In this document: one piece after another, positions 21,654 to 60,536 of the stretch
Layout of the letters: each line of letters opens with the position of its first letter
Position numbering within the stretch: position 1 is the first letter of the stretch
Source: Candidatus Latescibacterota bacterium
Lineage (GTDB): Bacteria > Latescibacterota > UBA2968 > UBA8231
Direction of reading: 5' to 3'
Assembly (NCBI GenBank): GCA_965223905.1
Contig: CBDCXV010000002.1
Span: forward strand, 1-64,000
Length of the DNA stretch: 64,000 nucleotides
The notes under the pieces: generated by a model
Told to the model about the DNA's origin: nothing
Databases searched by the model: none
The model's input: the letters and a program-made list of their open reading frames with translations, nothing else
Program-made: the position numbers and the translations under genes

Positions 21654-21682
21654 TTATTTCCCCTCTTTCTTGGTTGAGCCCA

Positions 21683-31690: not shown

Positions 31691-31715
31691 ATGCCCCCCT
31701 CCTACCTTTCGCTAA

Positions 31716-35324: not shown

Positions 35325-35333
35325 CCTCCTTTG

Positions 35334-36362: not shown

Positions 36363-36389
36363 AATCTCCATCTCCCTTTCTCAAGAACC

Positions 36390-38975: not shown

Positions 38976-39089
38976 ATCTCCATCTCCTTGTTTTGCCAGG
39001 ACGGGTTATTATGATCGAGCCCGAAAGCGAAACGGCTCAAATCCCGTGGGCGCTGGTGTGTCCGCGAAACGCCAATTTTCGGCAAACCG

Positions 39090-39851
39090 GCTGTCGACGT
39101 CGACCAGGCTCACCGCGGCCCTCACCGGCGTTCCGGCAATCACTCCCTCCGGAAGCGCCCCGAACCCCAACGTCACCTCCTCGTCGGCCCGGTCCGTATC
39201 CTCGGTCGCCGTTGATGGAATTCCTCGGACCGGGCCCGGCTCGAAGAGACGTCTTCCCACCTCTTCGTACCGCTCAACCGGCGCTGCCACTGCCACCGGA
39301 GGTCGGTCACGCCCCCATCCGGTTCATCGAGCGCGCTCCCCAACGGATGACCCACCACTGGCGCAGTCGTAGACAAGGTCACAGTGCCCTCTTCGTCCAC
39401 GTCGGTGACTTTCACTGTAACCAAATAGGGAATTGTTAATTCGCCAACATCAGCTTGCACTATTGCGCAATAAGAATTGCGAGAAGGAAGAGGCAGGCTA
39501 GCCGAATAACCATTAGCAGTTGGATTCTCATAATCCGGAGAGGAAACGAAACGAAGAACGCCCTCACTGGAAATGACAAAATCCTCTGGGTCGTTGTTGA
39601 ATTCTGTGCTTTGACCCAAAGACCAAGTAACTGTCTGGCCTCCTGCTCCTGTGACTGAGTATTCGGCAACATCCTTTTTGTCGTTTTCCGGAAATCGAAT
39701 TTCATAAAGCCCAACGACATTTGGACCCGTAACCTCCTCAGTCCAATCAGATTCTGCATCATTATCGGCGCCAAAATTGTCTATGTAAAATGCCTTTGCC
39801 CTGATTTTTTTACCTATATCTGCGCCGGTGGGTACATACGTCGAACCAGTT
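39090..39851 (-). pseudogene. Stalk remnant: AT-rich-coded Ig-like end + cadherin-like domain, then a Calx-beta fragment
   Basis: Frame TGSTYVPTGADIGKKIRAKAFYIDNFG...FPENDKKDVAEY...VTWSL...DFVISSEGVLRFVSSPDYENP...VTVKVTDVDEEGTVTLS, then ATEDTDRADEEVTLGFG, which is identical to the sequence at about 16020-16060. Confidence 0.8.
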
Positions 39852-42800
39852 TCACCGTCACCGTCACATCTAGCAGCGAAGAGTCCGCCGGCGTGCCGGT
39901 GTCCTTGACCTTCACCGTCACCTGGTAGACGTTGTCGGTCCCGTCATCGCCCGGCGATTCGAAGTTGGGGGCGGTGGCGAAGCGCAGTCCCCGGCCCGGG
40001 CCCGAGCCGGACAGCCTGAAGTCGCTCGCATCGTCCCCCGTCAGCGACCACGCGATGCTGTGGCCGTCCGGATCCAAGGCGGAGTAGGCGCCTACGGCCC
40101 CGGTGCCGTTCTCGTCGAACGATGGCGAGTCTGGGCCCGAAAGCACCGGCACCCGATTGGGTTGGCGAGGGGTTGCGGTGGCGTCGGCGGCCGGCCCTTC
40201 CCCGACCTCGTTGACCGCCCGCACCTGGAAAGCGTACGGGGTGCCGTTTCTCAGACTCGACACCGTGGCGCTGGTAGCCGTGCCCACCTCGGTCCAGGTG
40301 TCGTCGTTGGGCCAACTGGCCGAACTGCGGCGGTGCCGATGTTCGTATCGGCTGATCGCCGAGCCGCCGGTCGAAGACGGCGCGGACCAACTCAGCGACA
40401 CCTGTCCGTTGCCGGGCGTCGCCTGAAAGTCCCCCGGCGCCTCCGGCACCCCCACCACCGGGTCGCTCTTGACGCTGGCCGCCTGCTTGCCCGGCCCGTG
40501 CGCGTCGTCGTACCTGGCCCGAGCCCGCAGTTGCTTGCCGATCAGCCCACGCCCGAGCCGGATGGTCTTCGACGTCCCGAGCTGCTCATCCACCGCCCCC
40601 GAGGCCCCACCCGGCGGCGCCGGCGTGCTGGAAAACCAGGTCCACCGCACGTTCTCCTCCCCCCCGTCCGGGTCGCTCAGCGTCGCCGTCAGGTCCTGGC
40701 CCACCCGGGGCGCCATCGGCGACAGGGTCACCGTACCCTCCTCGTCGACGTTGGTCACCGTCACCGTCACCGGAAGCCGCAAAACAGGCGCACCCGACTC
40801 CCTGGCCTCCACCGTCACCCGGTAGACGTTGTCGGTGTCCGCATCGACCGGCGATTCGAAGTTGGGAGCCGTGCCGAAACCCAGGACACCGGACGACGAC
40901 AGGGTAAAGGCCCCCGCGTCGACGCCTGACCGCGTCCAGGTTCGGCCGGCAACCGACGGGTAGGAAACCGCCGCGCCGGTGCCGTTTTCCTCAAACCAGA
41001 TCCCGGTGGCCCGGTTCGACGCCACCCCGTCGCCCACCCCGTTGAGCGCCCGCACCTCGAACGTGTACGCGCCGGGGCTCAGCCCCGTCAGCGCATGCGA
41101 GGTCGTGGTCGCATCGCTGCCTGACACCGCCCCCCAGGGGGCCCAGGAAGCGCCCCCGTCCGTGCTCTGGCGATACTGATACCCCCTCAGCGCCGAGCCG
41201 TTGTCGGCCGCCGTCTCCCAGCTCAGGCGCATCTGCCTGTCGCCGTCGCCGGGCGCCGCCCTCAGGTTCCCAGGAGCAGCAGCCACCCCCGCCGGGGTCA
41301 CCGCCGTCGTCGCCTCCGAGGGCGCCCCTTGCCCGGCCGCGTTGAGCGCCCGCACCCGGAACGTGTACCTCCGGCCGTTGGTCAGATTCGGCACCGTATG
41401 GACGCGCGTGCTCGCCCCGCTGCCCGACATCGTCTGCCAAGACGCCCAGGTCGTGTCCGGGCCGACGACCGTGCCTGACCGGTACTGCCACCCCGTAAGG
41501 TGGGCGTGATCCGGTCCCGTCCAGGCCAACCGCACCTGCCGGTCGCCCCGCGTCGCCGTCACACCGGTCGCCGGACCCGGCTGCGGCTGCACCCCCGCCT
41601 CCCCCGGCAGCGGCCCCGACCAGGCGCCGGCCTCTTGCCCCCGGCGCGCCCGCACCCGATACCGATACACCCGGTCCGGGTCCAGGGTGGGGTGGACGTG
41701 CGCGCGACGGGCGCCCTCGACCGTGCCCGCCCCGTTGTCCAGCAGGCTCGTCCACGACTCCGGCCAAGTCCCTCCTGACACCGGTTTGCTCTGCCAGTGC
41801 ACGTCGTAGCCGCTGACCGCCGGACTCGCCGACACCGGGGGCCACGACACCCGCGCCTGCGCCCAGCCCGAAACCGCCAACCCGCCCTCCGGACCCGGCA
41901 GCAGGCCCTCGGTCGGCGGCGGCGGCCGGGCCGGCGTCACCGCCCCGGTGGGGGCGCTCTGCGCCCGCTTGCCCGGACCGTGACCGTCCCGGTAGCTCAC
42001 CCGCGCCCGCAGCATGTGACCGACATCCGCCGCCGTGGGCGTGTAGCTCTTCAGCCCCGGCAAAGTGGACACCGCCCCCGAAGCCCCACCCGGCGACGGG
42101 ATGGGCTGCCACGGCCCGTTGCCGAGCCGACGCTCAAACACCCACCCGTCGCGGTCCGCATCGTCGGAATCCCCCTCCTCGTGCCTCGCACTCACATTCC
42201 CATCCGGGTCGGTCAGGGCCGCGGTAAACGCCAGACCCTCCTGAGGACTCGAGGGCAGGGTCACCGTGCCCGGCTCGTCGACGTTGGTCAGACTCACCCT
42301 GACCGGAAACGGGGGCGACGACAGCGACCCGTCGCCGGCCGTCACCGTCACCTCAAAGACGGTGTCGTCGTTCGCGTCCCCCGGAGATTCGAAATCCGGC
42401 GGCGGCGCCCGGAAACGCAGCCGACCCGACGCATCGATTTCCATCGTGTCCGCATCGGCGCCTCCCAGCGTCCACGTGATGGAGTTTCCTTCCGGGTCGG
42501 TGGCCGCATACGTGGCCACCACGCCGGCGCGGTTCTCGGCAAAGGAAGGGGCGGGAGGACCGCTGGTGATCTCGGGCGCCTCGTTGACGCCGGTCACCGT
42601 CACCCGCACCGTCACCGTGGTGTCGGCCGTCGCGTCCGGGCGGCCGTCGCTGAGCGACACGTCCACCTCGTAGACGTGGTCGCCGTTCGCGTCCCCCGGA
42701 GACTCGAAATCCGGCGGGGGCGCCCGGAACCGCAGCCGACCCGACGCATCGAGACGCATCGTGTCCGCATCGGCGCCTCCCAGCGACCACGTGAGCACAT

Positions 42801-45800
42801 CGTTGTCCGGGTCGGTGCCCCTATAGGTGGCCACCACGCCGGCGACGTTCTCGGCAAACGAAACCGTGGAAGGACCGCTCGTGATCTCCGGCGGACCGTT
42901 GGTCGGCGGGGCCGCCGACACCGTGAACGATTCGGCCAACGGACCCCCCGGCACCAGCGCCCGCACCTGGAACTCGTAGGTCACCTCCGCGTCCAGACCG
43001 TCCACCGTATGCGTCACCGTCGAACCCGTGCGGTTGGGTTCGATCCCCTCCCAAAGCCCCCACGACCCCGTGCCCGCCTGCTGACGATACTGCCAGGCCG
43101 TGATCGCCGGATCGTCCGGATCCATCCAGGTCAACTCCACCGTGGTGGCGGTCGGTCGCTGCCAACGAAGACCCAGAACCGAACCGGAAGTCGACTCCGA
43201 AATCGTCGCCCCGTCCGAAGCGACCAAACGCATCTTGATTTGGTAGGTCACGCCGGGGTCCAGGCCCGTGATTCGCAGCGTCGCCGCCTGTCGGAAAGCG
43301 GCGGCTTGAGTCTCCGACGCGCCCCCGGCCAACCCCTCCACCGGCGCAAGGTCGGTAGGGGAAAAGGTCACGACCAGGCTCGCCCCAGGGGGCAGAAGCG
43401 GAGAGAAATTGGCCAGGGGTACGAAATCGCTGGTCGTCGTGACCCCCGTCGCGCTGACGGTCACCAACTGATACCGGACGTTGTCCGACGGTACCGTATA
43501 AGCGCTTTCCGGCAGGTCCTCATCCTCGTCCGACAGGTCAAACCCCACCTCGAACTGCGCCTTGCCCGCCCCGCCTCGGGGTTTCACCGAAAGCAGCTGC
43601 CTGAAATGCGATGGCGGAGACACCATCACCTCCGGCTCCGCCCCCGTGAAGGTCCCGTAGCGGGGCCGCACCTTGAACCGGTGCCCCCGCCACAACTTCA
43701 CGCGCTCTACCGTATGCGTGACCGTAGTCGCACCGCTGCCGCTTATCTCCTGCCAGTCCTGCCAGGCCAAAGGGCCCGCCTTATGCCGTGTGTCCCATCC
43801 CGTAATGCGGGTATCGCCCGGATCGTCCCAGGTCAGCTTGACTTTGTGGTCGGCAAAAATATCGAGACCGTCCAGAACCCATTCCGCCGCCAGGTTTTCC
43901 GGGGGCATGGTAACCTGCGCCGCGGCGCCCTCTCCGATCGCGTTTTCCGCACGCACCTCGAAGGTGTACACGGTGCCGTTGGTCAGTCCCGTGACCGTGT
44001 GCTCGGTGAGATCGGCCGCCTCGGTGCCGGCGGGAAGGGAGATCGGACCCCAGTCCGGAGACCACGTAGTCCCCCCGTCCGTGCTCTGGCGGTAATCATA
44101 TCTGGTAAGCGCCGAGCCGTTGTCCGGCGGCGTGTCCCAGGTCAAAAGCACCGCACGGTCGCGCGGGGCCGCCCGCAGGTTACCCGGCGCCGACGGCACA
44201 CCCGCCACCGCCACCGCCATAGCGGTGGCGGGTGTGCTCGTCCCCAGCCCATTGACCGCCGAAACCTCAAACGTGTACGACGTGTTGTGAATCAGATTTT
44301 CCACCGTCGCCTGAGTCGTCGTCACGGCGATCGGATCGCTCCAGGTACCCGCACCGGAACGGAACCGGTACTGGTACGTGACCGTAGGATCGGTGGAGGC
44401 ATCCCACGCCAGCGTCACTTGGCCCAGCTGGACTTCGGCCCTCAGGTTGGCAGGGGTGGTCGAAGCCGCAATGGATACATCCACGAGGATGTTGACATCC
44501 GCATCGGCATCGTCATACCGGATGTCGGTCAAAGCGAGGCTCAGGGTAGTGGGATCGGGGTGGGCACGGCCACCGGTTACCTGGCGCAGCCCGGCCCCCG
44601 CATTCAGACTGGTGGCCACCGTTACGCTGTCCTCGTCGAACGTACCGAAGCCGGTCCGGGGATCTTCTATCGGGCCGGTCGAAAAGGGATCGGACAACAT
44701 GTCGTGGTATTCGGGGACCGTAGGATTCTGGTCTTGATCCCGAGAGTCGCGATAACGACGTTCGTCGGCGACTATGAGGAGGGGACGCTCTTGAAAATCG
44801 GAGTCCATATCGTCATAGCGGCGCCAGACCATGAGGCCCTGATCTACCGCGTTTCTGGCCGCATAGTCGTAGAACAAGACATAGCGCCCACCAAACGCCT
44901 GCGTCGTACGGCGGTTGAGCAGAAATTCGACGTTTCCCCGGTCAATCAGATAAGTCGCACCGGCGGCGATGGCGTAGTCGTTCTGAGAACCCATAATCTC
45001 GGTCGGCGTGAGCCAACCAAGATCCACCAGGTAAAAGGGGTTTATCGGATTGGAACAGGAGGAATAGGGCAGATAGTAGCCGTTTGCCCCATCTTGGGGC
45101 CCTTGATCTCCGCCGCCCTGCATCAAGGTCCACCCCATGTGGTTGGCATCGTCCACCACATGGTTTGACACCGAGTTGCCGTACCGATTCCGGCCGGCGG
45201 GGTCCGTCCAATTCCCGTCGCCATGGTTGAGACCAAGCAGGTGACCCACTTCATGAGCGTGCGTGCCAATGCCTGCAAACCGGTCAGCGCCATGGCTGTT
45301 GTTTTTAAACCCCTGACGCTCCGACATTACGTAGCGGTAAGCGACATTCCCGGCTCTTGGATTGGCTGATGTAACTCTATCCGCTCGGGGGTGCAGTCTG
45401 CTGCTGGTATCGCTAAAGTAGGGTCCGGAGTACAGAAACAGGATCTTTCGGCGCAGAAGGCGGGAGAACGGATAATCGGCCGAAGTGTGGTTTGGGAGAC
45501 TGATGGAAGACCCCGAGGCGGCCAACGTCCTCAGCGTCTCCCGGAACGCGTCGTTCCAGAAATCATTACTCATGGCGCGCTCGGCATAGTGTTCCTTGGA
45601 GGCCGCCAATGGAATCCAATTGGGAAAGCCGTCGCTTCCCGCCGTATTGATCATACGCACGTGCAGCTCGAACGCTCCGTCGGAAACCTCGTCAAAGTAG
45701 GCCCGCAGACTGCCGAACACCTCGGGCAGTCGCTCGTTGCCACCCGCTACCGTGACGTTGCTTCCGACAAAGGCGGTGGGATGGCCCCCTTCCGCAGTGG

Positions 45801-46128
45801 GATAGCCGCCTGCCAGCATCCGCATAAAATCGTTCAGGCGGTAAAAAGTGGGGGTTGCCGTTCCCCTGGTGCCCTCACCATGCGGTCGGTCGTAATCGTG
45901 ATACCTATACCGGGAGCAGGTCGTGCACGGTCTATGGTTTGTGGGAGATGAGGCCGTCGTGTCCCGGAAGGTGATCAACACCACATCCAGGGTACAGGCT
46001 TCAGCGGCGGCGTTTGCGATGGGGTTGCCTGCGTGCGGCCACGTAGAAGTCGAGCCGCGGGCAAAAATCGCCGAAGAACTGAGAAGCGATCCAAAAAGAA
46101 GCGCGAGTAACACAGGGGTCGGTTTCAT
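39814..46128 (-). CDS. M6 (immune inhibitor A-like) metzincin protease head + FN3/cadherin-like stalk (2104 aa); truncated, no sorting domain
   Basis: Signal peptide; GSLRAYFDEVSDG; HEVGHLLGLNH (HExxHxxGxxH); Met-turn GWTLMQGG; LGWLTP; GLMVW. Start overlaps the upstream stop (ATGA). Confidence 0.88.
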   Translation of the reverse strand: MKPTPVLLALLFGSLLSSSAIFARGSTSTWPHAGNPIANAAAEACTLDVVLITFRDTTASSPTNHRPCTTCSRYRYHDYDRPHGEGTRGTATPTFYRLNDFMRMLAGGYPTAEGGHPTAFVGSNVTVAGGNERLPEVFGSLRAYFDEVSDGAFELHVRMINTAGSDGFPNWIPLAASKEHYAERAMSNDFWNDAFRETLRTLAASGSSISLPNHTSADYPFSRLLRRKILFLYSGPYFSDTSSRLHPRADRVTSANPRAGNVAYRYVMSERQGFKNNSHGADRFAGIGTHAHEVGHLLGLNHGDGNWTDPAGRNRYGNSVSNHVVDDANHMGWTLMQGGGDQGPQDGANGYYLPYSSCSNPINPFYLVDLGWLTPTEIMGSQNDYAIAAGATYLIDRGNVEFLLNRRTTQAFGGRYVLFYDYAARNAVDQGLMVWRRYDDMDSDFQERPLLIVADERRYRDSRDQDQNPTVPEYHDMLSDPFSTGPIEDPRTGFGTFDEDSVTVATSLNAGAGLRQVTGGRAHPDPTTLSLALTDIRYDDADADVNILVDVSIAASTTPANLRAEVQLGQVTLAWDASTDPTVTYQYRFRSGAGTWSDPIAVTTTQATVENLIHNTSYTFEVSAVNGLGTSTPATAMAVAVAGVPSAPGNLRAAPRDRAVLLTWDTPPDNGSALTRYDYRQSTDGGTTWSPDWGPISLPAGTEAADLTEHTVTGLTNGTVYTFEVRAENAIGEGAAAQVTMPPENLAAEWVLDGLDIFADHKVKLTWDDPGDTRITGWDTRHKAGPLAWQDWQEISGSGATTVTHTVERVKLWRGHRFKVRPRYGTFTGAEPEVMVSPPSHFRQLLSVKPRGGAGKAQFEVGFDLSDEDEDLPESAYTVPSDNVRYQLVTVSATGVTTTSDFVPLANFSPLLPPGASLVVTFSPTDLAPVEGLAGGASETQAAAFRQAATLRITGLDPGVTYQIKMRLVASDGATISESTSGSVLGLRWQRPTATTVELTWMDPDDPAITAWQYRQQAGTGSWGLWEGIEPNRTGSTVTHTVDGLDAEVTYEFQVRALVPGGPLAESFTVSAAPPTNGPPEITSGPSTVSFAENVAGVVATYRGTDPDNDVLTWSLGGADADTMRLDASGRLRFRAPPPDFESPGDANGDHVYEVDVSLSDGRPDATADTTVTVRVTVTGVNEAPEITSGPPAPSFAENRAGVVATYAATDPEGNSITWTLGGADADTMEIDASGRLRFRAPPPDFESPGDANDDTVFEVTVTAGDGSLSSPPFPVRVSLTNVDEPGTVTLPSSPQEGLAFTAALTDPDGNVSARHEEGDSDDADRDGWVFERRLGNGPWQPIPSPGGASGAVSTLPGLKSYTPTAADVGHMLRARVSYRDGHGPGKRAQSAPTGAVTPARPPPPTEGLLPGPEGGLAVSGWAQARVSWPPVSASPAVSGYDVHWQSKPVSGGTWPESWTSLLDNGAGTVEGARRAHVHPTLDPDRVYRYRVRARRGQEAGAWSGPLPGEAGVQPQPGPATGVTATRGDRQVRLAWTGPDHAHLTGWQYRSGTVVGPDTTWASWQTMSGSGASTRVHTVPNLTNGRRYTFRVRALNAAGQGAPSEATTAVTPAGVAAAPGNLRAAPGDGDRQMRLSWETAADNGSALRGYQYRQSTDGGASWAPWGAVSGSDATTTSHALTGLSPGAYTFEVRALNGVGDGVASNRATGIWFEENGTGAAVSYPSVAGRTWTRSGVDAGAFTLSSSGVLGFGTAPNFESPVDADTDNVYRVTVEARESGAPVLRLPVTVTVTNVDEEGTVTLSPMAPRVGQDLTATLSDPDGGEENVRWTWFSSTPAPPGGASGAVDEQLGTSKTIRLGRGLIGKQLRARARYDDAHGPGKQAASVKSDPVVGVPEAPGDFQATPGNGQVSLSWSAPSSTGGSAISRYEHRHRRSSASWPNDDTWTEVGTATSATVSSLRNGTPYAFQVRAVNEVGEGPAADATATPRQPNRVPVLSGPDSPSFDENGTGAVGAYSALDPDGHSIAWSLTGDDASDFRLSGSGPGRGLRFATAPNFESPGDDGTDNVYQVTVKVKDTGTPADSSLLDVTVTVKLVRRMYPPAQI
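43005..43920. repeat. Shared stalk block C, near-identical to about 49319-50235 (offset 6314), linking the M6-head and lyase-head genes
   Basis: Near-identical protein segment PENLAAEWVLDGLDIFADHKVKLTWDDP...EGIEPNRTGSTVTHTV in both genes. Confidence 0.92.
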
Positions 46129-46911
46129 TGGCTGACCTCCTGTTTGATGCGTGCCCAGGACAACCCCTCAACACTGGAGTCCGACGAGCTGGACCGGAGA
46201 GCCGCCTCGGCTCCCTCAACCGTCCGGGTACGTCCATCAATTACTGCGTGTTTGGCTGTCAAATAGTTGATAAATAGAGGAGCATCGCCGCTCCCCCTTT
46301 CATCGCTACAGCCCTTGATCCCAAAGCCTTTCAGGAAAGCAGTACCGCCTAATGCGTAAGGAAAATGCTTAATAGGTCCGCCATAAGTCTCAGATTCAGA
46401 AGAGGCGCCGGAAGCCCCTTCATCCAAATCAAAAAAGAACCGTCCACTCTGGATTATTGTGACCTTGTTGTATCCTTCTGGAGTATCGACCGAATAGCTT
46501 GGGCGGCTGGACCCGCTGGCGCCGCTAGCGCCGGAGGAAAAGCGATACAGCGACTGCTCCCCATCGTCGGTGCGTTCCATCAGTTGGTCGCCCGACCACC
46601 GCAGCTTCTTGCCCGCTATGAAATAGGATGGGGCCGGGGGCCAAAGCTCAGGCATTTCGCTGATGACGTAGTAGGTCGTGTCGGTGATGACCTCGGTGCG
46701 CAACACCGAAATGGTGAATTGGGGGGGGAAATTGGGCCCCGGCCCAGTCAGGCCAATTTTGGCGGTCGGCCTCATCGTTTTCGTAGTCGTAGTAGTCATG
46801 CTCATACGTCCACGAATTGCCCACGGCCAGCGGCAGGAAATCGCTGGTTTCAGCGACGACCGACCCGCTGCCCAGGCAAAAAACAGATATGAGTAGTAGA
46901 AGCGCTTTCAT
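46125..46911 (-). pseudogene. Exported partner protein (FxPLxVGNxWxY family) with SWARIK tail, frameshifted at a C8 homopolymer
   Basis: ORFs 46648..46911 and 46125..46805 join if the G8 run at 46721-46728 is G7 (QFPPQFTISVLRTE, which aligns with KQFTLEITHTE of the neighbouring gene). Confidence 0.8.
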
Positions 46912-46950
46912 GCGTCACCTCCGTGATTGGTTATGATGTGATTTAGCTCA
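46898..46950 (-). repeat. Approximately 45-bp gene-junction module CTAAATCACATCATAACCAATCACGGAGGTGACGC-ATGA-AAGCGCT; other copies at about 52897-52945, 59571-59612, 60493-60540 and 61450-61497
   Basis: Five copies read directly from the sequence; each contains a GGAGGT Shine-Dalgarno and the start ATG (ATGA stop/start overlap in four copies). Confidence 0.88.
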
Positions 46951-48191: not shown

Positions 48192-48344
48192 GAAATATCC
48201 CCTTTCAATTGACAAATTTTCTTTGGTCAAAAAGAGATGCACCGGGCGATCGCCCATAGAAGACTACGTGTGTTCTCCGTTAATGATTCAGGCTTGTACC
48301 TTCGCGTAAGCCGCGGTTTTCATGGAAACATACCTCGATTCTTA

Positions 48345-51300
48345 CTAGGAGGCTACGCCGGGGACATAACTCCATTTCCACCGCGACGGGGACACATTCC
48401 TTGTTTTGAACTCCCTTTGAATGTCCCCCGGATCCTCGAAATCCGGGGGCGGCTCCCGGAAACGCAGCCGACCCGACGCATCGATTTCCATCGTGTCCAC
48501 ATCGGCGCCGCCCAGCGTCCAGGTGAGCGCATCACTGTCCGGGTCGGTGCCCGTATACGTGGCCACCGTGCGGGCGTCGTTTTCGGCAAACGATACCGCC
48601 GAAGGACCGCTCGTGATCTCCGGCGGACCGTTGGTCACCGGGGCCGGCGGCGGGACCGCAAGCGACCCATCCGGACTCGTCTCCACCATCGGCCAGGCCA
48701 ACACCACCCCGCCATTCGAGGCCACCCCCCGAACCCGGAACCGGTGATTCACCCCGTTGGTCAGGTCCGGCACCGTATACGAGGTCGTCGACGCCGTGCT
48801 GCCCGGGACCGGCTGCCACCCACTCCACCTGTCCTGACCCTCGCGCACCCGATACTGCCACCCCGCGATACGGGTATCGGACGGGTCCGCCCAGACCAGC
48901 TCCACCGAGCCGTTCAACGCCTGGGCCCGCAAGCCGTTGGGCGGACCTCCCACCGACTTCCCGAAGGGACCCTCCTGGGACCCGGCCAAGGCCCGAACCC
49001 GGAACCGGTAGCTCACCCCGTTGGTCAGGTCCGTAACCGTATACGAGGTCGTCGACGCCGTGCTGCCCGGGATCGGCTGCCACGCTCCCCAATCCTCTCC
49101 GGCCTGCCGCTGCTGATACTGCCACCCGGTGATGCGGGCATTGTTCGCGTCGTCCCAACGCAACGTCATCGACGCGTGACCGGGGTCCGCCCGCAGGTTA
49201 CCCGGCGCTACCAAAGACTTCGGAGGAGCCGACACCGTGAACGATTCGGCAACCAGACCCCCCGGACCGATCGCACCAACCTGAAACCGGTAGGTCTCCT
49301 CCGCGTCGAGACCCGACACCGTATGCGTCACCGTCGAACCCGTGCGGTTGGGTTCGATCCCCTCCCAAAGCCCCCACGACCCCGTGCCCGCCTGCTGACG
49401 ATACTGCCAGGCCGTGATCGCCGGATCGTCCGGATCCATCCAGGTCAACTCCACCGTGGTGGCGGTCGGTCGCTGCCAACGAAGACCCAGAACCGAACCG
49501 GAAGTCGACTCCGAAATCGTCGCCCCGTCCGAAGCGACCAAACGCATCTTGATTTGGTAGGTCACGCCGGGGTCCAGGCCCGTGATTCGCAGCGTCGCCG
49601 CCTGTCGGAAAGCGGCGGCTTGAGTCTCCGACGCGCCCCCGGCCAACCCCTCCACCGGCGCAAGGTCGGTAGGGGAAAAGGTCACGACCAGGCTCGCCCC
49701 AGGGGGCAGAAGCGGAGAGAAATTGGCCAGGGGTACGAAATCGCTGGTCGTCGTGACCCCCGTCGCGCTGACGGTCACCAACTGATACCGGACGTTGTCC
49801 GACGGTACCGTATAAGCGCTTTCCGGCAGGTCCTCATCCTCGTCCGACAGGTCAAACCCCACCTCGAACTGCGCCTTGCCCGCCCCGCCTCGGGGTTTCA
49901 CCGAAAGCAGCTGCCTGAAATGCGATGGCGGAGACACCATCACCTCCGGCTCCGCCCCCGTGAAGGTCCCGTAGCGGGGCCGCACCTTGAACCGGTGCCC
50001 CCGCCACAACTTCACGCGCTCTACCGTATGCGTGACCGTAGTCGCACCGCTGCCGCTTATCTCCTGCCAGTCCTGCCAGGCCAAAGGGCCCGCCTTATGC
50101 CGAAAGTCCCATCCCGTAATGCGGGAGTCGTCCGGATCGTCCCAGGTCAGCTTGACTTTGTGGTCGGCAAAAATATCGAGACCGTCCAGAACCCATTCCG
50201 CCGCCAGGTTCTCCGGGGGCAGGGTAACCTGCGCCGCAGCGCCCTCCCCGACCGCGTTGACCGCCCGCACCTCGAAGGTGTACACGGTGCCGTTCGTCAG
50301 GCTCGTGACCGTGTGCTCCTCGAGGTCGGCGGCCGTCGTGCCGGAGGGAAGGGGAATCGTCCCCCAGTCCGGCGACCAGGTCGCACCCCCGTCCGTGCTC
50401 TGCCGATACTCATACCCGGTTAAGGGGGAACCGTTGTTCGCCGCCGGCGTGTCCCAGGTCAGGAGCACCGCACGATCGCGCTGGGTCGCCCGCAGGTTTC
50501 CCGGCGCCAAAGGCACCTGACCGCAGTTCAACAGGGTAACCCCCGACGAAAAAAGAAGGCCGCCGGTCCCCGCCTGCTCGCAATGCACCGCGTCCCTCAC
50601 CGTCACGTCGGTCAACCTCGCCACACCCAAGCTTTTTACTCGAATCCCGTACCAGTCATCATGGGACGGGTCGGTGGTGTTGGACGAGCGGAAGGTGATG
50701 CCGCCCCCCACGGTCGTGAGGTTACCCCTGACGATGAGCTCCGAGCGGGCCGGATCCTCGCCGCCCCCGGTCTCGTCGCTGTTGGCCGCAAAGCGAATCT
50801 CGGTATCGGCTGCGATGGTCAGGTCCATTCCGTCGGGAATCGTGACGTCGCCGGTGACCAGGATCGTGCCCGACCACTTGCTGTGGCCAACCAGCTCCCC
50901 CGACCAGGGGGTGGGGTTGGTGGAGACGTGGAAATCGTCGAGGAACAGGGTGTTGTCGGCAGGAGAACGGTATTTGCCGCCGTAGTGGATGTCCGCCCAG
51001 GCCCGGTTGATCCCGATGGTGTCGTGGGTCGTATAGGCCAAATCATAAACGCATAAATCCGGATCCTTCTCGCCGTTGATCCAGACCTCGGTCAGGCCGT
51101 TTTCCCGGCCCGGATCGTTCATCTTGATGCGCTGCTCGATGCGATACCATTGGTTCATCTGAAGGCGTGGCGCGGCGTTCCAATCAACTCTTCCCTCCGT
51201 CTCGTCATAAGGCCAGTGATCGCCTGTGTCGTTCTCCTGGTTCAGGTGATAGACGTAGGACAACGGCGACCATTGGTTTGTGGGATATCCCGCCCCCCTA

Positions 51301-51914
51301 CCCGCCAGCATGCGCGCCGACCACCCCACGGATCCTTGCTCCGGATCGGGCTTCCAACCGCCCGCACCGGCATTGTACGTGCCCGCCAGACCGGGTATCT
51401 TTACTACATGTTGTTCTTTAAAAAACCAGTCCTCCTCCAGTTTTATATGATACCTCAGGTACATCTCATCGTTATCCGGCACTAACGAATCGTAGATCCG
51501 CCTATCACCTTTAGGCCATAGGTTCGTCGCGTCGCCACGGACGATCCTGCCGCCCAGGTAGTAGCTGATGCTTCGCCCGAAGTGGGGACTTAGCACATTT
51601 CCCGGGCCATTCGGGTTGTTCGTGCCATCTTGATTGCTCGTGGAATCCGGTATGAACACTTCCAAGGACCGGTTGGCTAGGACAACGCCATCTATTGTTG
51701 TATCGAGAAGGGCACGGTCGGCTCTTCCGCTTCGGATGCGATTGAACTTGACATGAGGCAGGGGCTGAGGCGTGATGGTATTTTCGTTGACAACGTGTTG
51801 CGCCCACGTGCGAAGCCCGTAATCCTCGAAGTCCTGCTTGAAATAGGTCGTATCCTGCTGTGCCAGGGCAGTTCCGCTCAGGCACAAGGCGGCGTACAGA
51901 ATCGCTCTTTTCAT
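48345..51914 (-). CDS. PL14-like polysaccharide lyase head + neck + partial FN3/cadherin stalk (1189 aa); truncated
   Basis: Signal peptide; EMYLRYHIKL..DW.F, VKIPGLAG, GWSARM, YVYH, WYRIEQRIKMNDPG..NG..EVWING, YGG, FLDDF. Breaks at PPDFEDPGD in the middle of a cadherin-like domain. Confidence 0.82.
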   Translation of the reverse strand: MKRAILYAALCLSGTALAQQDTTYFKQDFEDYGLRTWAQHVVNENTITPQPLPHVKFNRIRSGRADRALLDTTIDGVVLANRSLEVFIPDSTSNQDGTNNPNGPGNVLSPHFGRSISYYLGGRIVRGDATNLWPKGDRRIYDSLVPDNDEMYLRYHIKLEEDWFFKEQHVVKIPGLAGTYNAGAGGWKPDPEQGSVGWSARMLAGRGAGYPTNQWSPLSYVYHLNQENDTGDHWPYDETEGRVDWNAAPRLQMNQWYRIEQRIKMNDPGRENGLTEVWINGEKDPDLCVYDLAYTTHDTIGINRAWADIHYGGKYRSPADNTLFLDDFHVSTNPTPWSGELVGHSKWSGTILVTGDVTIPDGMDLTIAADTEIRFAANSDETGGGEDPARSELIVRGNLTTVGGGITFRSSNTTDPSHDDWYGIRVKSLGVARLTDVTVRDAVHCEQAGTGGLLFSSGVTLLNCGQVPLAPGNLRATQRDRAVLLTWDTPAANNGSPLTGYEYRQSTDGGATWSPDWGTIPLPSGTTAADLEEHTVTSLTNGTVYTFEVRAVNAVGEGAAAQVTLPPENLAAEWVLDGLDIFADHKVKLTWDDPDDSRITGWDFRHKAGPLAWQDWQEISGSGATTVTHTVERVKLWRGHRFKVRPRYGTFTGAEPEVMVSPPSHFRQLLSVKPRGGAGKAQFEVGFDLSDEDEDLPESAYTVPSDNVRYQLVTVSATGVTTTSDFVPLANFSPLLPPGASLVVTFSPTDLAPVEGLAGGASETQAAAFRQAATLRITGLDPGVTYQIKMRLVASDGATISESTSGSVLGLRWQRPTATTVELTWMDPDDPAITAWQYRQQAGTGSWGLWEGIEPNRTGSTVTHTVSGLDAEETYRFQVGAIGPGGLVAESFTVSAPPKSLVAPGNLRADPGHASMTLRWDDANNARITGWQYQQRQAGEDWGAWQPIPGSTASTTSYTVTDLTNGVSYRFRVRALAGSQEGPFGKSVGGPPNGLRAQALNGSVELVWADPSDTRIAGWQYRVREGQDRWSGWQPVPGSTASTTSYTVPDLTNGVNHRFRVRGVASNGGVVLAWPMVETSPDGSLAVPPPAPVTNGPPEITSGPSAVSFAENDARTVATYTGTDPDSDALTWTLGGADVDTMEIDASGRLRFREPPPDFEDPGDIQREFKTRNVSPSRWKWSYVPGVAS

Positions 51915-51959
51915 CCCGGAACCTTTCGGGTTTGGTGTTTTTTAGTTGGGTTGGAGTTT

Positions 51960-52907
51960 TTACCGCTGTTCTTTTTTGACCTGCCCCCAAGTCTTCTCAG
52001 AGGGCTGGTCGCCGACGACCGTCCCGGAATCGAGCGCATGCTCCCACCTGTCGAAATGGGCGTCTCGAGACCGCTTCCCCGTGCCATCCAGACCCACCTC
52101 GTAAATGCCGTCCGAGGCGCCCGTCGCCCCGTCGCTCACCTGGGTGAAGGCGATGCGCCGGCTGTCGGACGACCAGGAAAGAAAGCGGATCTGGACATTG
52201 TCCAGAATCTCCCGCACCTGCGTGCCCGCAGAATCGGCGACGAACAGGCCCGGCCCCCAAACGTCACCGAAGGCGATATGGGCGCCATCGGGCGACCACG
52301 CACCGTAGCTGGTGCTCTTCGACAAATACGTGCGGGAAGGGGAGTCCGTGGAGGATGATCCGGTAACCGTTTCGAGGTCGTCGAGGTCCAAGACCAGCAG
52401 CGTGTAGCATTCGTCGAAACAGTCGTTATACAGCAGTTTGCGGCCGTCCGGGGAGAAGGGAGATGGCCATGCGTTGGCCAGACTGCCTTGTTTGGTGAGA
52501 AGCCGGGGATTCGAACCGTCGATCTCTACCGCCCAGAGATCGATCAGGAATACACTTACAAAATCAAAGAAGATCGTCCTGCCATCTGGGTGCCATCGGG
52601 GGGTTTGAATTGACCGACCGCCAATCGTTGTGTGATCAAGTAGCAGGGTTTCTTCCTCGGTCTCGAGATCCATCAGGTACAGATCCGACAGTCTGATATA
52701 GACCATGCGGGTCCGATCCGGAGAGAGTGCCGGGTCATATCCCTGGGCAAGCTGCCGTTCGCCACTGCCGTCCAGATTGCTTATGTAGATCACTTCTCTT
52801 TTGGCATACACTTTGAACCCCTGGTCCTCGGTCTCCTCCTCTTGTGCTTTGGCCGGCATTCCGCCGAAGCACAGGACAGATGCGAGAAGTAGTACGAGCG
52901 CTTTCAT
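51960..52907 (-). CDS. TolB-like (PD40) beta-propeller partner protein with TWGQVK tail
   Basis: Signal peptide; PALSPD, PRWHPDG, FSPDGRKLLY, AWSPDG and SWSSDSRRIAF repeats; ends EKTWGQVKKEQR. Confidence 0.88.
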   Translation of the reverse strand: MKALVLLLASVLCFGGMPAKAQEEETEDQGFKVYAKREVIYISNLDGSGERQLAQGYDPALSPDRTRMVYIRLSDLYLMDLETEEETLLLDHTTIGGRSIQTPRWHPDGRTIFFDFVSVFLIDLWAVEIDGSNPRLLTKQGSLANAWPSPFSPDGRKLLYNDCFDECYTLLVLDLDDLETVTGSSSTDSPSRTYLSKSTSYGAWSPDGAHIAFGDVWGPGLFVADSAGTQVREILDNVQIRFLSWSSDSRRIAFTQVSDGATGASDGIYEVGLDGTGKRSRDAHFDRWEHALDSGTVVGDQPSEKTWGQVKKEQR

Positions 52908-53672
52908 GCGTCACCTCCGCGATTGGTTGTGATGTGATTCAGTTGCTGTGCTTTGACCTGCCCCCAAGTCTTCTCAGAGGGCTGGTCGCCGACGACCGTA
53001 GTGGAATCGAGCGCATGCTCCCACCTGTCGAAATGGGCGTCTCGAGACCGCTTATCCGTGCCATCCAGTTCCACCTCGTAGATGCCGCCCGAGGTGCCCG
53101 TCGCCCCGTCGCTCACCTGGGTGAAGGCGATTCGCCGGCTGTCGGACGACCAGGAAATGGCGCCGACCTGGATATTGTCCAGAATCTCCCGCACCTGCGT
53201 GCCCGCAGAATCGGCGACGAACAGGCCCGGCCCCCAGACGTCACCGAAGGCGATATGGCCGCCATCGGGCGACCACGCACCGTAGCTGGTGTCCTTCGAC
53301 AGGTACGTGCGGGAAGGGGAGTCCGTGGAGGATGATCCGGTAACCGTGTCGAGGTCGTCGAGGTCCAAGACCAGCAGCGTGTAGCATTCGTCGAAACAGT
53401 CGTTATACAGCAGTTTGCGGCCGTCCGGCGAGAAGGGAGAAGGCCATGCGTTGGCCAGACTGCCTTGTTTGGCGAGCAGCCGGAGATTGATGCCGTCCTT
53501 CTTTATCGAGTAGAGATCGAGCAGGTGGGCTATACTTCCAAGATCAAAGAAGATCGTCTCTCCATCGGGGTGCCATTTGGGATGTCCGGCCGCCACATTT
53601 ACAGAAATCGTTGCAGTATTAAGCAGCAGCGTTTCTTCCTCTGTCTCAAGATCCATCAAATACAGATTCCCA
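52904..53672 (-). pseudogene. 5'-truncated TolB-like paralog fused to the broken end of the upstream stalk
   Basis: Homology begins at GNLYLMDLETEEE (about 53670), directly after stalk sequence VATYT. Signal peptide and first blade are missing. Confidence 0.83.
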
Positions 53673-56585
53673 AGTATACGTGGCCACCACCCCCGAGCCC
53701 TTCTCGGCAAACGTGGTGTCGCTGACTCCCGACACCACCGACGCCTCGTTGACGTCGGTCACACTCACCCGCACCGACACCGTGGTGTCGGCCGCCGCGT
53801 CCGGGCGGCCGTCGCTGAGCGACACCGTCACCTCGTAGATCTTGTCGCCGTTCATGTCCCCCGGAGACTCGAAATCCGGCGGCGGCGCACGGAAAAAAAG
53901 CCGACCCGACGCATCCAGCCGCATCGTGTCCGCATCGGCGCCGCCCAGCGTCCACGTGAGCGGATCGTTGTCCGGGTCGGTGCCCGCATACGTGGCCACC
54001 GTGCCGGCGCCGTTCTCGGCAAACGATACCGCCGAAGGACCGCTCGTGATCTCCGGCGGACCGTTGGTCACCGGGGCCGGCGGCCGGACCGCAAGCGACC
54101 CATCCGGACTCGTCTCCACCATCGGCCAGGCCAACACCACCCGGCCATTCGAGGCCACCCCCCGAACCCGGAACCGGTAGCTTACCCCGTTGGTCAGGTC
54201 CGTAACCGTATACGAGGTCGTCGACGCCGTGCTGCCCGGTATCGGCTGCCACACTCCCCAATCCTCTCCGGCCTGCCGCTGCCGATACTGCCACCCGGTG
54301 ATGCGGGCATTGTTCGGGTCGTCCCAACGCAACGTCATCGACGCGTGACCGGGTACCGCCCGCAGGTTGCCCGGCTCTACCAAAGGCTTCGGTGGCGCCG
54401 ACACCGTGAAGGATTCGGCCAACGGACCCCCCGGCACCAGCGCCCGCACCTGGAACTCGTAGGTCTCCTCCGCCTCGAGACCCGAGACCGGGTGCGTCGT
54501 CGTCGTCGCGCCGGGGTCGCGCACGTTCTGCCAGAGCTCCCACGAGCCGCTGCCGGCCCGCTGACGGTACTGCCAAGTCCTGATAAACGGCTTGTTGGGG
54601 TCCGTCCAGCTCAACGCCACCGCGGTGGCGGTCGGTCGCTGCCAACGCAGCCCGTACACCGAAGCCGAGGCCGGCTCCAACTCCGTCACCCCGTCCGGAG
54701 GGACCAGACGCACCTTGAATTGGTAGGTCGCCTCGGGGTCCAGACCCGACACCCGGATATATGCCAGCACCTGCCGGGAAGCGGTCTGGTCGGCCGCCCC
54801 CGTACCGCCGGTAACCAAACCCTCGATCGGCGGCAGGTCCGTGTCGGTGAACTCGGCTTCCAGGGTCGCACCGGGCAGTATCCTTTCTATTTCCGACTGC
54901 AACAGGGCAACCCACTCGCTCGTCGTCACCCCCGCCGCCGTGGTTTCCGTAACCTCAATTTGAAAGTATTCATTCGGCACATCGCCGTCGGGCAGATCAA
55001 CATCGACCGGCAGGTCAAACCCCACCTCGAACTGCGCCTTGCCGTCGCCGCTGCGGGGCACCACCACAGGCGCCTGCGTAAGAACCGGCAAGGGGGACAG
55101 CACCACCTCCGGCTCGGCCCCCGTGTGGGTCCCGTAGCGGGGCCGCACCTGGAACCGGTACGTGCGCCAGATTTCCACCCCCTCCACCGAATGCGTGACC
55201 GTAGTCGCACCGCTACCGGTGATCCCCTCCCAGTCTTCCCAGGCCGCGGCGCCCGCCTTCTGCCGTGAGTCCCATCCGGTGATGCGGGAGTCGCCCGGAT
55301 CGTCCCAGGTCAGCTGCGCTTGGTTGTTCGCCAACAGATGAAGGCCGCCGAAAACCCATCGCGCCCGCAGGTTCTCCGGGGGCAGGGTAACCTGCGCCGC
55401 GGCGCCCTCTCCGACCTCGTTGACGGCGCGCACCTCGAAGGTGTACACGGTGCCGTTGGTCAGACCCGTGACCGTATGCTCCTCGAGGTCGGCCGCATCC
55501 GTGTCGGCGGGAAGGGAAATCGTTGTCCAGCCCGGAGACCAAGTAGTCCCCCCGTCCGTGCTCTGGCGATACTCATACCCGGTTAAGGGAGAACCGTTGT
55601 TCGACGGCGGCGTGTCCCAGGTCAAAAGCACCGCACGGTCGCGCGGGGCCGCCCGCAGGTTTTCCGGCGCCGACGGCGCCGAACCGCAGTTGGTCAGGGT
55701 AACCCCCGACGATAAAAGAAGGCCGCCGGTCTCCGCCTGCGCGCAATGCTTCGCGTCCCTCACCGTCACGTCGGTCAACCTCGCCACACCCAAGCTTTTT
55801 ACTTGAATCCCGTACCAGTCGTCATGAGACGGGTCGGTGGTGTTGGACGAACGGAAGGTGATGCCGCCCCCCACGGTCGTGAGGTTGCCCCTGACGATGA
55901 GCTCCGAGCGGGCCGGATCCTCGCCGCCCCCGGTCTCGTCGCTGTTGGCCGCAAAGCGAATCTCGGTATCGGCTGCGATGGTCAGGTCCATTCCGTCGGG
56001 AATCGTGACGTCGCCGGTGACCAGGATCGTGCCCGACCACTCGCTGTGGCCGACCAGCTCACCCGACCAGGGGGTGGGGTTGGTGGAGACGTGGAAGTTG
56101 TCGAGGAACAGGTGGTGGTTTTTAGGAGAACTGTAGCGGCCGCCGTAGTGGATGTCCGCCCAGGCTCGGTTGATCCCGATGGTATCGTGAGTCGTAAAAC
56201 GCAATCCACTTTTGCTTAACGCCAGATTTTTCTCCCCGTCGATCCAGACCTCGGTCAGGCCGTTGGACCGATTCGGATCGTTCATCTTGATGCGCTGCTC
56301 GATGCGATACCACTGGCCCATCTGATGGCGCGGCAGGGTGTCCCAGAGAACTATTCCCCTATCGTTAGAGGGAAAGTGTTCTCCCGTGCCGCAGTTGTGA
56401 ACCGGTGCGTTGCCGCACCTCTGGTCCAGGTGATAGATGTAGGAGATCGGGGACCATTCGTTCGGGGGATATTCTTCATCCCTTCCCGCCAGCATGCGCG
56501 CCGACCACCCCAGGGAATCCGGATCTTGAGGCCACATGCCGCCCGATCCGGAATTGTACGTGCCCGCCAAGCCAGGGATTTTTAC

Positions 56586-58141
56586 GGGTGTAGCCGCGTT
56601 TTTACGCAGCCATCGTGTAGGGTTGAGAGGTAGTCTTTTTAAGGTACCAGTTCCAGAAAGCCTCCCATCGTTTCGATTGCACGTGGACTCGTAGGTTGAG
56701 AATCTGCTGTCCTCCCTCGCGCCTCCAGCGCATGCCGCTGCGTTTGAGTCGATGGCCGACCAGGGTCTTGGCGGCTGCCTCCACGGGACCACTGGAGAGG
56801 ATCAAACCCAAAGCGTGATAGCCGGCGTAGTCCATTTTATCCCGGTTGTTGCGGAAGTAGCCCAGTTCGGTGGTCGCCTGACGATGGCGTGGTGATCCTT
56901 TTGGGAGTTGGCGCCGATGGTAGGCCAGGGAACGGATCAGGCCCTGAACGGCACCCGGCTCATGGCGCAGTTTGTGGCGCCATCGTCGATACCAGCGATC
57001 GGCCTTTCCCGAGCGCTTGCCGAAGAGGTGCTCGGCGGCCTTCGACAGGTGCTGGGCGGCGTGGTAGAAGTCGAGAATGCGGGTGAAGCCGTCGAACACC
57101 CTGAGCCCATCCACGGTACGCCAGATCTCGCGCTTGCCGTCGGCCAACACCACCCGGTGCTCGTAGCTCCCCTGCTGCAGGGCCCGTCCCGTCTGGTCCA
57201 CCAGGCCGTTGACCAAAGTTTCCATTTTCGCCTCCGGCATGCGCGCGGCATAGCGCACGTCGACGCGTTGGGGCTCTTCCCTGTCGGGATCCAGCGGCGT
57301 CAGGTAGGTGGCGATCCTGCCCACCCCCGCCTCTTTCCAGGCCGTGGGGGCGCTGTCGGTTTCGCTGTCCATCGGTCGTTCGGCGGGCCGTCCGCGCTTG
57401 GGTGCCGGTTCCCGCAGGGGCACGGTAACTCCGTCCCAACTGACCACCAGGGTGTCGCCTTCGGGATCCAGTGGCGCCGCTGCTTGCAAGGCCAGCTCGA
57501 GTTGTTCGGCGTGATCCTCCGCATACTGCCCTACAGTCGTCAACAGGTATTGAATGGCGGTGCGCGAGGGCGGCTCGGGCAGCAGCTCCCCCAAGCAGTC
57601 CCGGACCTCGGCAGGGACCATGCCGGCGCCCAGAAACGCCGTCAGGCGCTCCAGTTCCGGCACCATGAATCGCTTGACCATGCCGCAGCGCTCATCCAAA
57701 GGCACCCGGCTCGGTCCGCCGCGATCGCGTTGGTATAGCCGACGCGCCACCACAACCTTGCCCCACAGGGTCATCCACTCCTTGTCGACCACCTGCTTGA
57801 ATCGGTACAGCTTCCCGTGGTGTACCACGGTGTCGTCGCCCATTTCACAAGCTTGAGCCAAGCGTTGGAAGCCGCTTCGACCGATGTCGTCCAAACACGA
57901 ACGAAACTCCCCCAGCATCTGGCGAAAGGCATCCGGTCCTGCTTGCCCGGACTGCAGGCGATGTTCCCACTGCCGGACATTTTCCTGCAGGTTGGTCAGG
58001 CGAGCGCTCAAATCGTGCGTATCTTCCATCTGGGACCCCTTTCCGGTTTTTGGGCTAAGTCGTTACCCCCAAAAGTACAACTCGTACCCGGACTTGGGGT
58101 CCCACTCTTGTTAAGAAATGCGTAAAATGGAGGCTACACCC
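56586..58141 (-). mobile_element. Complete insertion sequence, ISKra4/ISLre2-type (IS256-related), 1556 bp
   Basis: 23-bp terminal inverted repeats GGGTGTAGCCGCGTTTTTACGCA / GGGTGTAGCCTCCATTTTACGCA (20/23 identical); 8-bp direct repeat ATTTTTAC at 56578-56585 and 58142-58149. Confidence 0.93.
56602..58029 (-). CDS. DDE transposase (UPF0236/ISKra4-like), 475 aa
   Basis: VSWDG, LADG, LDFYHAAQHL and SGPVEAAAKTLVGHRLKRSGMRW motifs; the stop codon lies inside the inverted repeat. Confidence 0.93.
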   Translation of the reverse strand: MEDTHDLSARLTNLQENVRQWEHRLQSGQAGPDAFRQMLGEFRSCLDDIGRSGFQRLAQACEMGDDTVVHHGKLYRFKQVVDKEWMTLWGKVVVARRLYQRDRGGPSRVPLDERCGMVKRFMVPELERLTAFLGAGMVPAEVRDCLGELLPEPPSRTAIQYLLTTVGQYAEDHAEQLELALQAAAPLDPEGDTLVVSWDGVTVPLREPAPKRGRPAERPMDSETDSAPTAWKEAGVGRIATYLTPLDPDREEPQRVDVRYAARMPEAKMETLVNGLVDQTGRALQQGSYEHRVVLADGKREIWRTVDGLRVFDGFTRILDFYHAAQHLSKAAEHLFGKRSGKADRWYRRWRHKLRHEPGAVQGLIRSLAYHRRQLPKGSPRHRQATTELGYFRNNRDKMDYAGYHALGLILSSGPVEAAAKTLVGHRLKRSGMRWRREGGQQILNLRVHVQSKRWEAFWNWYLKKTTSQPYTMAA

Positions 58142-58667
58142 ATTTTTACTACTTGGGGTATATCTATTTCACCATCGTTAGTAAAATCCCAATCTGAACC
58201 CAGTTTTATGTGGTACCTGAGATACATCTCATCATTATCCGGAACATACGAATCGTAAATCGTGCGACCCTTATGGGTTTGGTGCACCGCTGGGTCGCCC
58301 CGGATAATTTTGCCACCCAGGTAGTAGCTGATGCTCCTTCCGTAATGTTCGTTCTCTTCAACCTTAACCTTCAAGATTCGGTCACCCGAGGAGGTTGTTT
58401 CAAGATGGACGCGCTGTTCCACTCCGAGGCCCACTCCGCCTCGAACGTCATTGAAAATGACGTGAGGCAGGGCTGGGGAGGGCGCCGTGGTAATCCTATT
58501 GTTGAAGTGCTGAGGCCACGTGCCCAGTGTCAAATCCTCGAAGTCCTGCTTGAAATAGGTCGTATCCTGTGCCAGGGCAGTTCCGCTCAGGCACAAGGCG
58601 GCGTACAGGATCGCTCTTTTCATCCCGGAAACCTTTCGGGTTTGGTGTTTAAGTTGGGTTGGAGTTT

Positions 58668-60505: not shown

Positions 60506-60536
60506 GCGTCACCTCCGTGATTGGTTATGCTGTGAT

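Follow-up and report, generated by a model that had tools for sequence, protein, structure and literature searches.

How do enzymes with unrelated catalytic domains come to stand on nearly the same stalk DNA? The question is raised by a 64-kb stretch of a Latescibacterota-like genome (hereafter the window), which is part of an island of tandem same-strand genes; the long open reading frames (ORFs) of the region all lie on the minus strand. Judged from their sequences, the island genes encode Sec-exported proteins that consist of an N-terminal catalytic head, sometimes a linker of about 125 amino acids (aa), and a long stalk of FN3 and cadherin-like repeats. Three of them are central here: gene A, with a metalloprotease-like head, and genes B and C, with predicted lyase heads of family PL14 (Table 1). 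The stalks of A and B share a tract of 786 nt without a single mismatch. We consider it highly probable that this tract reflects gene conversion between stalks of the tandem island, with A as the likely recipient and without movement of a head at the tract.

Self-BLAST of the window aligns the two stalks over 1292 columns at 94.35% identity (42914-44199 against 49228-50516). The mismatch-free run inside this alignment, found by codon listing and an exact-match scan, is the longest exact repeat of the window, and its two copies lie 6.3 kb apart. On the head side it is joined by 136 nt with 8 mismatches, and about 920 bases around the tract are 99% identical between A and B. Chance is excluded as an explanation, the probability of such a run being ~4e-28 if the 72 differences were spread evenly over the 1292 sites and ~2e-68 at the flank divergence of 18%. 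A preliminary description of the locus had reported about 0.9 kb of near-identical stalk DNA (43005-43920 and 49319-50235) beneath non-homologous N-termini, and both statements hold: the two blocks are ~99% identical, and BLASTP finds no match before aa 605 of A and aa 435 of B. The further pieces that it saw shared between A and the second lyase gene, C, are likewise present, as a block of 89.7% identity (42577-42914 against 53742-54079, self-BLAST) and an exact 54-nt match (42929-42982 and 54412-54465).

The kind of event can be read from the synonymous divergence (dS), calculated by block from a codon alignment of the A, B and C stalks. Between A and B it is 0.49 in the first FN3 repeat (FN3-1, A aa 645-733), 0.12 in A aa 734-780, 0.00 in A aa 781-1042 (none of 204 synonymous and none of 582 non-synonymous sites) and 0.43 in A aa 1043-1074, and is not uniformly high along the two stalks. 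Upstream of the tract, A and B are the least similar pair among A, B, C and a stalk of a relative, L1 (identity 0.83, against 0.87 for A-C and 0.91 for B-L1). In the core they reach 0.99 (A-L1 0.93, B-L1 0.92), and downstream they stand at 0.78, with 0.91 for A-C and 0.92 for B-L1. The sequence nearest to A changes at the borders, from L1 and C upstream to B in the core and to C downstream; sliding windows agree, and block trees conflict along the stalk. Near-identity is found between diverged homologous flanks, dS collapses inside the tract only, and relationships switch at its borders. These comparisons support a recent internal gene-conversion tract rather than a head graft, because the patch of identity is internal to an older, diverged homology.

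A recent head graft or partial duplication, in which one head acquired a newly made copy of the other gene's stalk, today's identical DNA being what is left of that copy, is improbable on the same evidence. It would account for unrelated heads above shared stalks, and between genomes the same stalk type does occur under different heads (see below). However, if the stalk had been copied in this way, identity should set in at the junction and continue from there. The A/B homology does start at the head-stalk junction (44199 in A, 50516 in B), but the 99% part follows only after about 275 nt, which are at 83% identity, and the 100% part after about 410 nt; on the 3' side, moreover, identity falls to 78% where A turns C-like. 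The preliminary description had left the choice between recent head exchange and gene conversion. The latter is retained and the former abandoned for the tract, since diverged stalk with a dS of 0.49 separates the tract from the junction.

Gene conversion also has a direction, for which a relative is informative. When genome contigs were scanned for the shared stalk segment, three loci were returned, all in OZ242214.1, the 7.05-Mb chromosome of a Candidatus Latescibacterota metagenome-assembled genome (MAG) and the closest genome found. It is a different genome, because its core tract is only 92-93% identical to A and B. B is collinear with L001 9995-11819 of this chromosome at 92% over 1832 columns, through and past the tract; A matches the same stalk at 91% over 1297 columns, and its homology stops at 42907. 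Because B follows the relative's stalk through and beyond the tract, we infer that A is most likely the recipient and that B-type sequence overwrote it after the genomes split.

The relative has two stalks of its own, 13 kb apart and 93-100% identical over ~1 kb, and it pairs heads and stalks differently. The head and linker of B (51990-50559) are 91-95% identical to a PL14 gene of OZ242214.1. From 50516 onwards, B follows a stalk that in the relative lies under another head (L001:7505-9994), and the stalk of the relative's PL14 gene matches B only from 49895, at 87%. This other head carries a HEYGHAMDLPELFD motif and a weak PF05547 (Peptidase_M6) match (E=0.0015), and is only 19% identical to the head of A. 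As judged from these alignments, heads and stalks have been re-assorted across predicted enzyme classes between the window genome and the relative. Unrelated heads on a common chassis, as the preliminary description had it, are true of the family, and what can be seen at work here is homologous recombination in the stalk. The head of A itself was not found in the three OZ242214.1 loci examined, nor among long proteins of the relative, where the best of 27 matches had 64% identity and the 7,053,161-nt contig contributed none.

We propose that the paralogy between the stalks of neighbouring genes lets homologous recombination copy stretches of one stalk into another again and again. The A/B tract would be one recent copying event of this kind, later than the split from the closest available genome and without a head being moved, and a conversion tract that reached the first FN3 repeat, where homology begins, would re-assort heads and stalks. 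Near-identical patches also exist between B and C, with dS of 0.016 in the linker, 0.057 in B aa 899-960 and 0 in B aa 1046-1095. Four giant genes of the window, G1 to G4 (1202-4502 aa), which have a common second head family, show the same pattern. G2 and G3 share 18413-19211 and 23004-23802 (exact runs of 333 and 465 nt), and G1 and G2 share 10680-11387 and 17079-17786 (exact runs of 290 and 417 nt). Because of these near-identical tracts of ~700-800 nt, conversion is judged to be island-wide.

The codon composition of the genes differs along their length. The GC content at third codon positions (GC3) is 0.37-0.69 in the first 600 nt, the head end, of seven genes (G1-G4, A, B and the 5' part of C), and in 600-nt blocks of the stalks mostly 0.80-0.95, with 0.62-0.79 in a few terminal blocks. 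This step fits recombination-rich stalks. GC-biased gene conversion is an established concept, and the step may be its footprint, other causes being compatible too. The GC contrast is also visible at regional scale, for example between the low-GC head ends at 13000-15000, 20000-22000 and 34000-36000 and the high-GC stalks at 4000-9000 and 41000-42000.

The tracts could instead be an artefact of assembly, a repeat having been collapsed or copied or the haplotypes of a mixed population joined, which we regard as very improbable. The window may derive from a metagenome-assembled genome, as the closest genome does, and frameshifts occur both in the region and in the relative. However, the two copies of the A/B tract lie in distinct and well-resolved flanks, and at one edge the match fades over 136 nt with 8 mismatches, as it would where a conversion tract ends. 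The window moreover holds three such tracts, and an independent genome shows the same pattern. In the 4502-aa gene, self-BLAST finds long internal tandem repeats, with a period of ~288 nt at 1578-4440 (89-96% identity) and of ~315 nt at 4466-6422 (85-91%); that 288-nt repeats of ~95% identity were resolved suggests long reads.

The stalks of A and B carry heads of different kinds. That of A looks like a zincin-like, M6-like protease, from its zinc motif and its predicted fold. In an alignment of 30 homologous sequences, H292, E293 and H296 of the zinc site are invariant (30/30), and G299, H302 and M336 are conserved in at least 90%. The M6 domain profile TIGR03296 aligns over positions 28-284 of 286 with E=1.3e-7 and 31.9 bits, against a cut-off of 110.8. 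PF05547 is absent from the head even at E<=10, where Pfam yields only sub-threshold reprolysin/matrixin matches at the zinc motif, and a sequence search of the PDB returned only the HEXXH stretch of ADAMTS-5 (E ~0.6). An AlphaFold2 (AF2) model of the head (pLDDT 72.9, pTM 0.83) has InhA2 as its best PDB fold (4yu5/4yu6; E=1e-5, probability 1.0), with a TM score of only 0.34/0.27 and a root-mean-square deviation of 9 A, followed by Akkermansia O-glycopeptidases. The family of this head is small and comprises 165 representatives at E<=1e-3 (41 at E<=1e-30) with lengths of 74-2540 aa. Many of the shorter members are fragment-like, and the longer ones carry the head at or near the N-terminus; none of 27 sampled relatives has a Pfam family over the head at E<=1e-5.

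The heads of B and C are PL14 members by profile, both PF21294 matches lying above the curated cut-off. The sequence of B reaches the PL14 structure 5gmt at E=0.02, and the Lys of its VVKIPGL stretch aligns with a 5gmt lysine. The AF2 model of the B head is poor (pLDDT only 54.1), and because of this its Foldseek matches are only indicative: the top matches are jelly-roll lyases, of which a PL36 lyase comes first and 5gmt (E=1.1e-6), 3a0n and 3gne (~1e-6) are others, and generic jelly-rolls come after. In the alignment of PL14 heads (A2), the list of invariant positions starts at P217 and holds the Y-x-Y pair Y220/Y222; K171 and the SAR stretch are not listed and lie in columns that are at least 70% conserved. 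The preliminary description had foreseen a repertoire directed at protein, polysaccharide and possibly lipid, and the predicted substrates bear this out in part. Polysaccharide fits the PL14 matches above cut-off, protein fits less firmly (zincin-like, with M6 below its cut-offs), and lipid is without support; the heads of the four other giant genes stay unassigned, and no lipid-directed head was found.

The linker module is absent from gene A. In 16 of 16 checked database proteins its matches span B aa 327-351 to 424-466 and follow heads of other kinds, an A-type head in 5 of the 16; precomputed Pfam labels give Peptidase_M6 for P0019 and P0048 and subtilase for P0047. The module also occurs at 55675-56050 in C and, by eye from the translation, at ~33900-34300 in the gene at 31716-35324. 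An ESM Atlas search with the head of the latter gene gave no usable match, and a suspected Vps62-type likeness of that head is without Pfam support. An unusual domain in the stalk of A (aa 840-985) had no family match either. Over 41 codons of the B and C linkers (50517-50640 against 55680-55803) there are 8.5 non-synonymous and 0.5 synonymous differences (dN 0.10, dS 0.016). This excess, in small numbers, could reflect relaxed constraint in the disrupted copy described below or diversifying change.

That copy, gene C, is interrupted by an ISKra4-like insertion sequence (IS). Its transposase matches NF033572 over positions 22-422 of 422 (E=3.2e-52, 178 bits, below the cut-off of 205), and its 23-nt terminal inverted repeats (56586-56608 and 58119-58141) are 87% complementary. 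The element sits inside a conserved part of the PL14 domain (VVK|IPGLAG), the flanks reading PQVVK and IPGLAG as in B, and its removal restores the reading frame. C is also cut short near 53670, its cadherin-like reading stopping at about aa 1040. As read from these features, C is inactivated and one of the two lyase genes is dead, so that of the second lyase gene in the proposed repertoire the PL14 match stands and the intact gene does not. The relative's PL14 gene (L001:13190-17000) is interrupted as well, after about aa 64-81, by a DDE_3 transposase gene (L001:13581-14669); this is an independent event, with a different element at a different site. The 3' junction of B (48258-48440) has no match elsewhere in the window or in the relative loci.

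Several points weigh against the explanation favoured here, conversion between the stalks of putatively displayed enzymes with A as recipient. The direction is drawn from one outgroup that is itself mosaic, L1 being A-like (0.98) at A coordinates 44217-44120, and the presence of two identical 786-nt copies in one DNA molecule is known from the assembly alone. The M6 assignment of the A head lies below both curated cut-offs, and the model of the PL14 head reaches a pLDDT of only 54. Scans for a domain that would anchor or sort the proteins at the C-terminus found none in A, B, C or G1-G4 (the last 200 aa being scanned for G1-G4 and A), a point against the putative surface display. Finally, the island may be decaying rather than functioning, because A, B and C all look damaged or 3'-truncated and C is interrupted by an IS; the end of B is, on the other side, also found in an intact relative of 1173 aa (P0005).

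A bolder reading, which we hold to be doubtful as a whole, extends stalk conversion to a combinatorial chassis. Ongoing, possibly GC-biased conversion would keep stalk and linker modules similar, and heads of unrelated classes (PL14 lyase, two M6-like protease kinds, the unassigned head family and, in relatives, subtilase) would be continually re-assorted. If true, bacteria would here have an equivalent of exon shuffling, yielding new displayed enzymes on short evolutionary time scales, and the steep step in GC3 from heads to stalks would be the trace that it leaves. Hardly credible is a dedicated, programmed system that shuffles heads and stalk cassettes as antigenic-variation loci do: the many tandem same-strand paralogues, the repeated ~700-800-nt tracts and the conserved module boundaries would suit it, but neither a recombinase nor a reverse transcriptase nor an arrangement of silent cassettes was seen in the window, its sole mobile element, an ordinary insertion sequence, has destroyed a gene, the tract ends, as far as examined, do not lie at common sequence signals, and the damaged genes favour passive recombination and decay.

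Table 1. Coordinates of the genes, domains, shared tracts and neighbouring features discussed in the text (window positions)
Feature	Position	Strand	Basis
Gene A, 2104 aa: predicted signal peptide, metalloprotease-like head, FN3/cadherin-like stalk	39814..46128	-	ORF; Pfam fn3 E=5e-62, 7 stretches; Cadherin, Cadherin_4 weak
Head of A, aa 1-546, zincin/metzincin-like, distantly M6-like	44491..46128	-	TIGR03296, AF2 model
Zinc-binding motif HEVGHLLGLNH, A aa 292-302	45223..45255	-	Homologue alignment
A copy of the 786-nt mismatch-free tract, A aa 781-1042	43003..43788	-	Exact match; dS = 0
B copy of the 786-nt mismatch-free tract, B aa 605-866	49317..50102	-	Codon listing, exact-match scan
Head-proximal tract edge in A	43789..43924	-	8 mismatches to B; dS 0.12, A aa 734-780
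Whole A/B stalk homology in A, with older 78-83% flanks around the tract	42907..44199	-	Self-BLAST and block comparison
Gene B, 1189 aa: predicted signal peptide, PL14 head, ~125-aa linker, FN3 stalk ending inside a cadherin-like repeat	48345..51914	-	ORF, Pfam
PL14 domain of B, aa 147-325	50940..51476	-	PF21294 E=4.5e-12, 46.6 bits, cut-off 27
Linker module of B, all-beta, aa 340-466 (aa 337-465 in the comparison with database proteins)	50517..50897	-	Match in 16/16 checked database proteins
Gene C, 3' part: rest of PL14 domain, linker, FN3/cadherin stalk	53646..56585	-	PF21294 E=6.4e-12, 46.1 bits
Gene C, 5' part: predicted signal peptide, N-terminal part of PL14 head	58142..58623	-	53% identical to B aa 1-174 (BLASTP); first 94 nt 96%
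ISKra4-like insertion sequence, 1556 bp, transposase ORF 56602-58029	56586..58141	-	NF033572, inverted repeats
Target-site duplication, copy 1, 8 bp	56578..56585	.	Read from sequence
Target-site duplication, copy 2, 8 bp	58142..58149	.	Read from sequence
Out-of-frame stalk-like remnants 3' of the stop codon of A	39090..39811	-	tblastn, A and G1 stalks match two other frames; ORF fragments
Two ORFs (87 aa and 226 aa), apparent frameshifted paralogue of the 449-aa secreted protein	46125..46911	-	Translations compared by eye, no alignment
449-aa secreted protein	46908..48257	-	No Pfam or NCBIfam match
PD40 beta-propeller gene, 315 aa	51960..52907	-	Pfam PD40 E=1.8e-11
5'-truncated PD40 paralogue fused near 53670 to the truncated 3' end of gene C	52904..53710	-	Homology to 51975-52684 ends at 53667

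The surroundings of the three genes contain smaller genes and remnants. The stop of the apparent frameshifted paralogue upstream of A overlaps the start of A, and the 449-aa protein is 36-37% identical to L001:6020-7411 and L001:17709-19121, both of which also flank stalked genes in the relative genome. PD40 genes form a tandem array (51960-53710 and 58668-61735) of ~305-315 aa and 80-91% identity, with a remnant at 61527-61735. Small genes at 14810-15787, 30086-31690, 35334-36371 and 37956-38975 sit directly upstream of giant genes. Their N-terminal part is conserved at 76-80% nucleotide identity (15346-15745 against 31324-31733, 31350-31657 against 38635-38942, and 36184-36363 against 38797-38976), and no family match was found among those scanned. 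Between two of these small genes, 36407-37841 holds stalk-like coding remnants in several frames, at most 63% identical to G1 aa 1745-2060, and looks like another decayed stalk gene. At the other end, an ORF that runs past the window (63452-64000) shows 64% identity with part of L001:19128-20867 (579 aa) and 50% with the M6-type head at L001:7505, over the catalytic region of that head; by these similarities it is probably a stalk-less M6-like peptidase.

The locus offers a clean and datable example of multi-domain secreted enzymes being rebuilt in an uncultured phylum: recombination in repeat stalks homogenises neighbours, and a tract that reaches the first repeat changes the pairing of enzyme and stalk. 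The annotation of metagenome-assembled genomes is affected, because identical kilobase tracts in different genes invite mis-assembly and wrong orthology calls, and so is the reading of enzyme repertoires, because one of the two lyase genes here is dead. The locus is also relevant to the question of biased gene conversion as the origin of GC-rich repeat stalks.

For Latescibacterota, our literature searches turned up no account of PL14 or M6-like enzymes on stalks or of conversion tracts of this kind. In the accessible part of one paper, FN3 is only listed among "eukaryotic-like" domains (PMC12993501), and in another PL14, fibronectin and dockerin do not occur (PMC4454575). The head of A resembles peptidase family M6 (immune inhibitor A, InhA2) in its HEXXH motif, in a near end-to-end TIGR03296 alignment and in having InhA2 as its best structures. 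It differs in lying far below the cut-offs, in the lack of a PF05547 match and in the third ligand of the zinc site: M6 has Asp at this position, whereas A has His (HEXXHXXGXXH). B and C resemble the PL14 enzymes AkAly30 of Aplysia and vAL-1 of Chlorella virus in passing PF21294 and in weak matches to 5gmt, 3a0n and 3gne. As far as the available text of PMC8618178 goes, however, the characterised PL14 enzymes are small, single-domain and generally from molluscs and viruses, whereas here the predicted lyase domain forms the N-terminal part of a ~1200-aa protein and is followed by a linker and an FN3 stalk.

Two systems resemble the arrangement as a whole. According to the accessible part of PMC12863079, the genes Giant1-5 of Apilactobacillus kunkeei encode very large extracellular proteins, lie consecutively and are diversified mostly by short intragenic recombination tracts. 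The genes described here are likewise consecutive and place an N-terminal functional domain on an elongated body, but those heads are beta-solenoid binding domains in a Gram-positive symbiont, whereas here enzyme-like heads (PL14, zincin) stand on FN3/cadherin-like stalks in a Latescibacterota-like host. The closest known case, by analogy, is ligA/ligB of pathogenic Leptospira. These are tandem genes of Ig-like-repeat surface proteins, nearly identical over a long segment (identity from -266 to +1890), for which, in the sections available, gene conversion helped by the tandem arrangement is the explanation generally accepted (PMC7821625). Both loci consist of tandem repeat-domain genes with a long near-identical segment and are otherwise different in sequence. 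The lig genes share their 5' end including the promoter and have unique C-terminal binding domains, whereas here a shorter tract (0.8-0.9 kb) is internal and the N-terminal enzyme heads are unique. The window thus adds a genuine and clear-cut gene-conversion tract that links genes whose enzyme heads differ, produced by recombination of an ordinary kind and involving no new mechanism.

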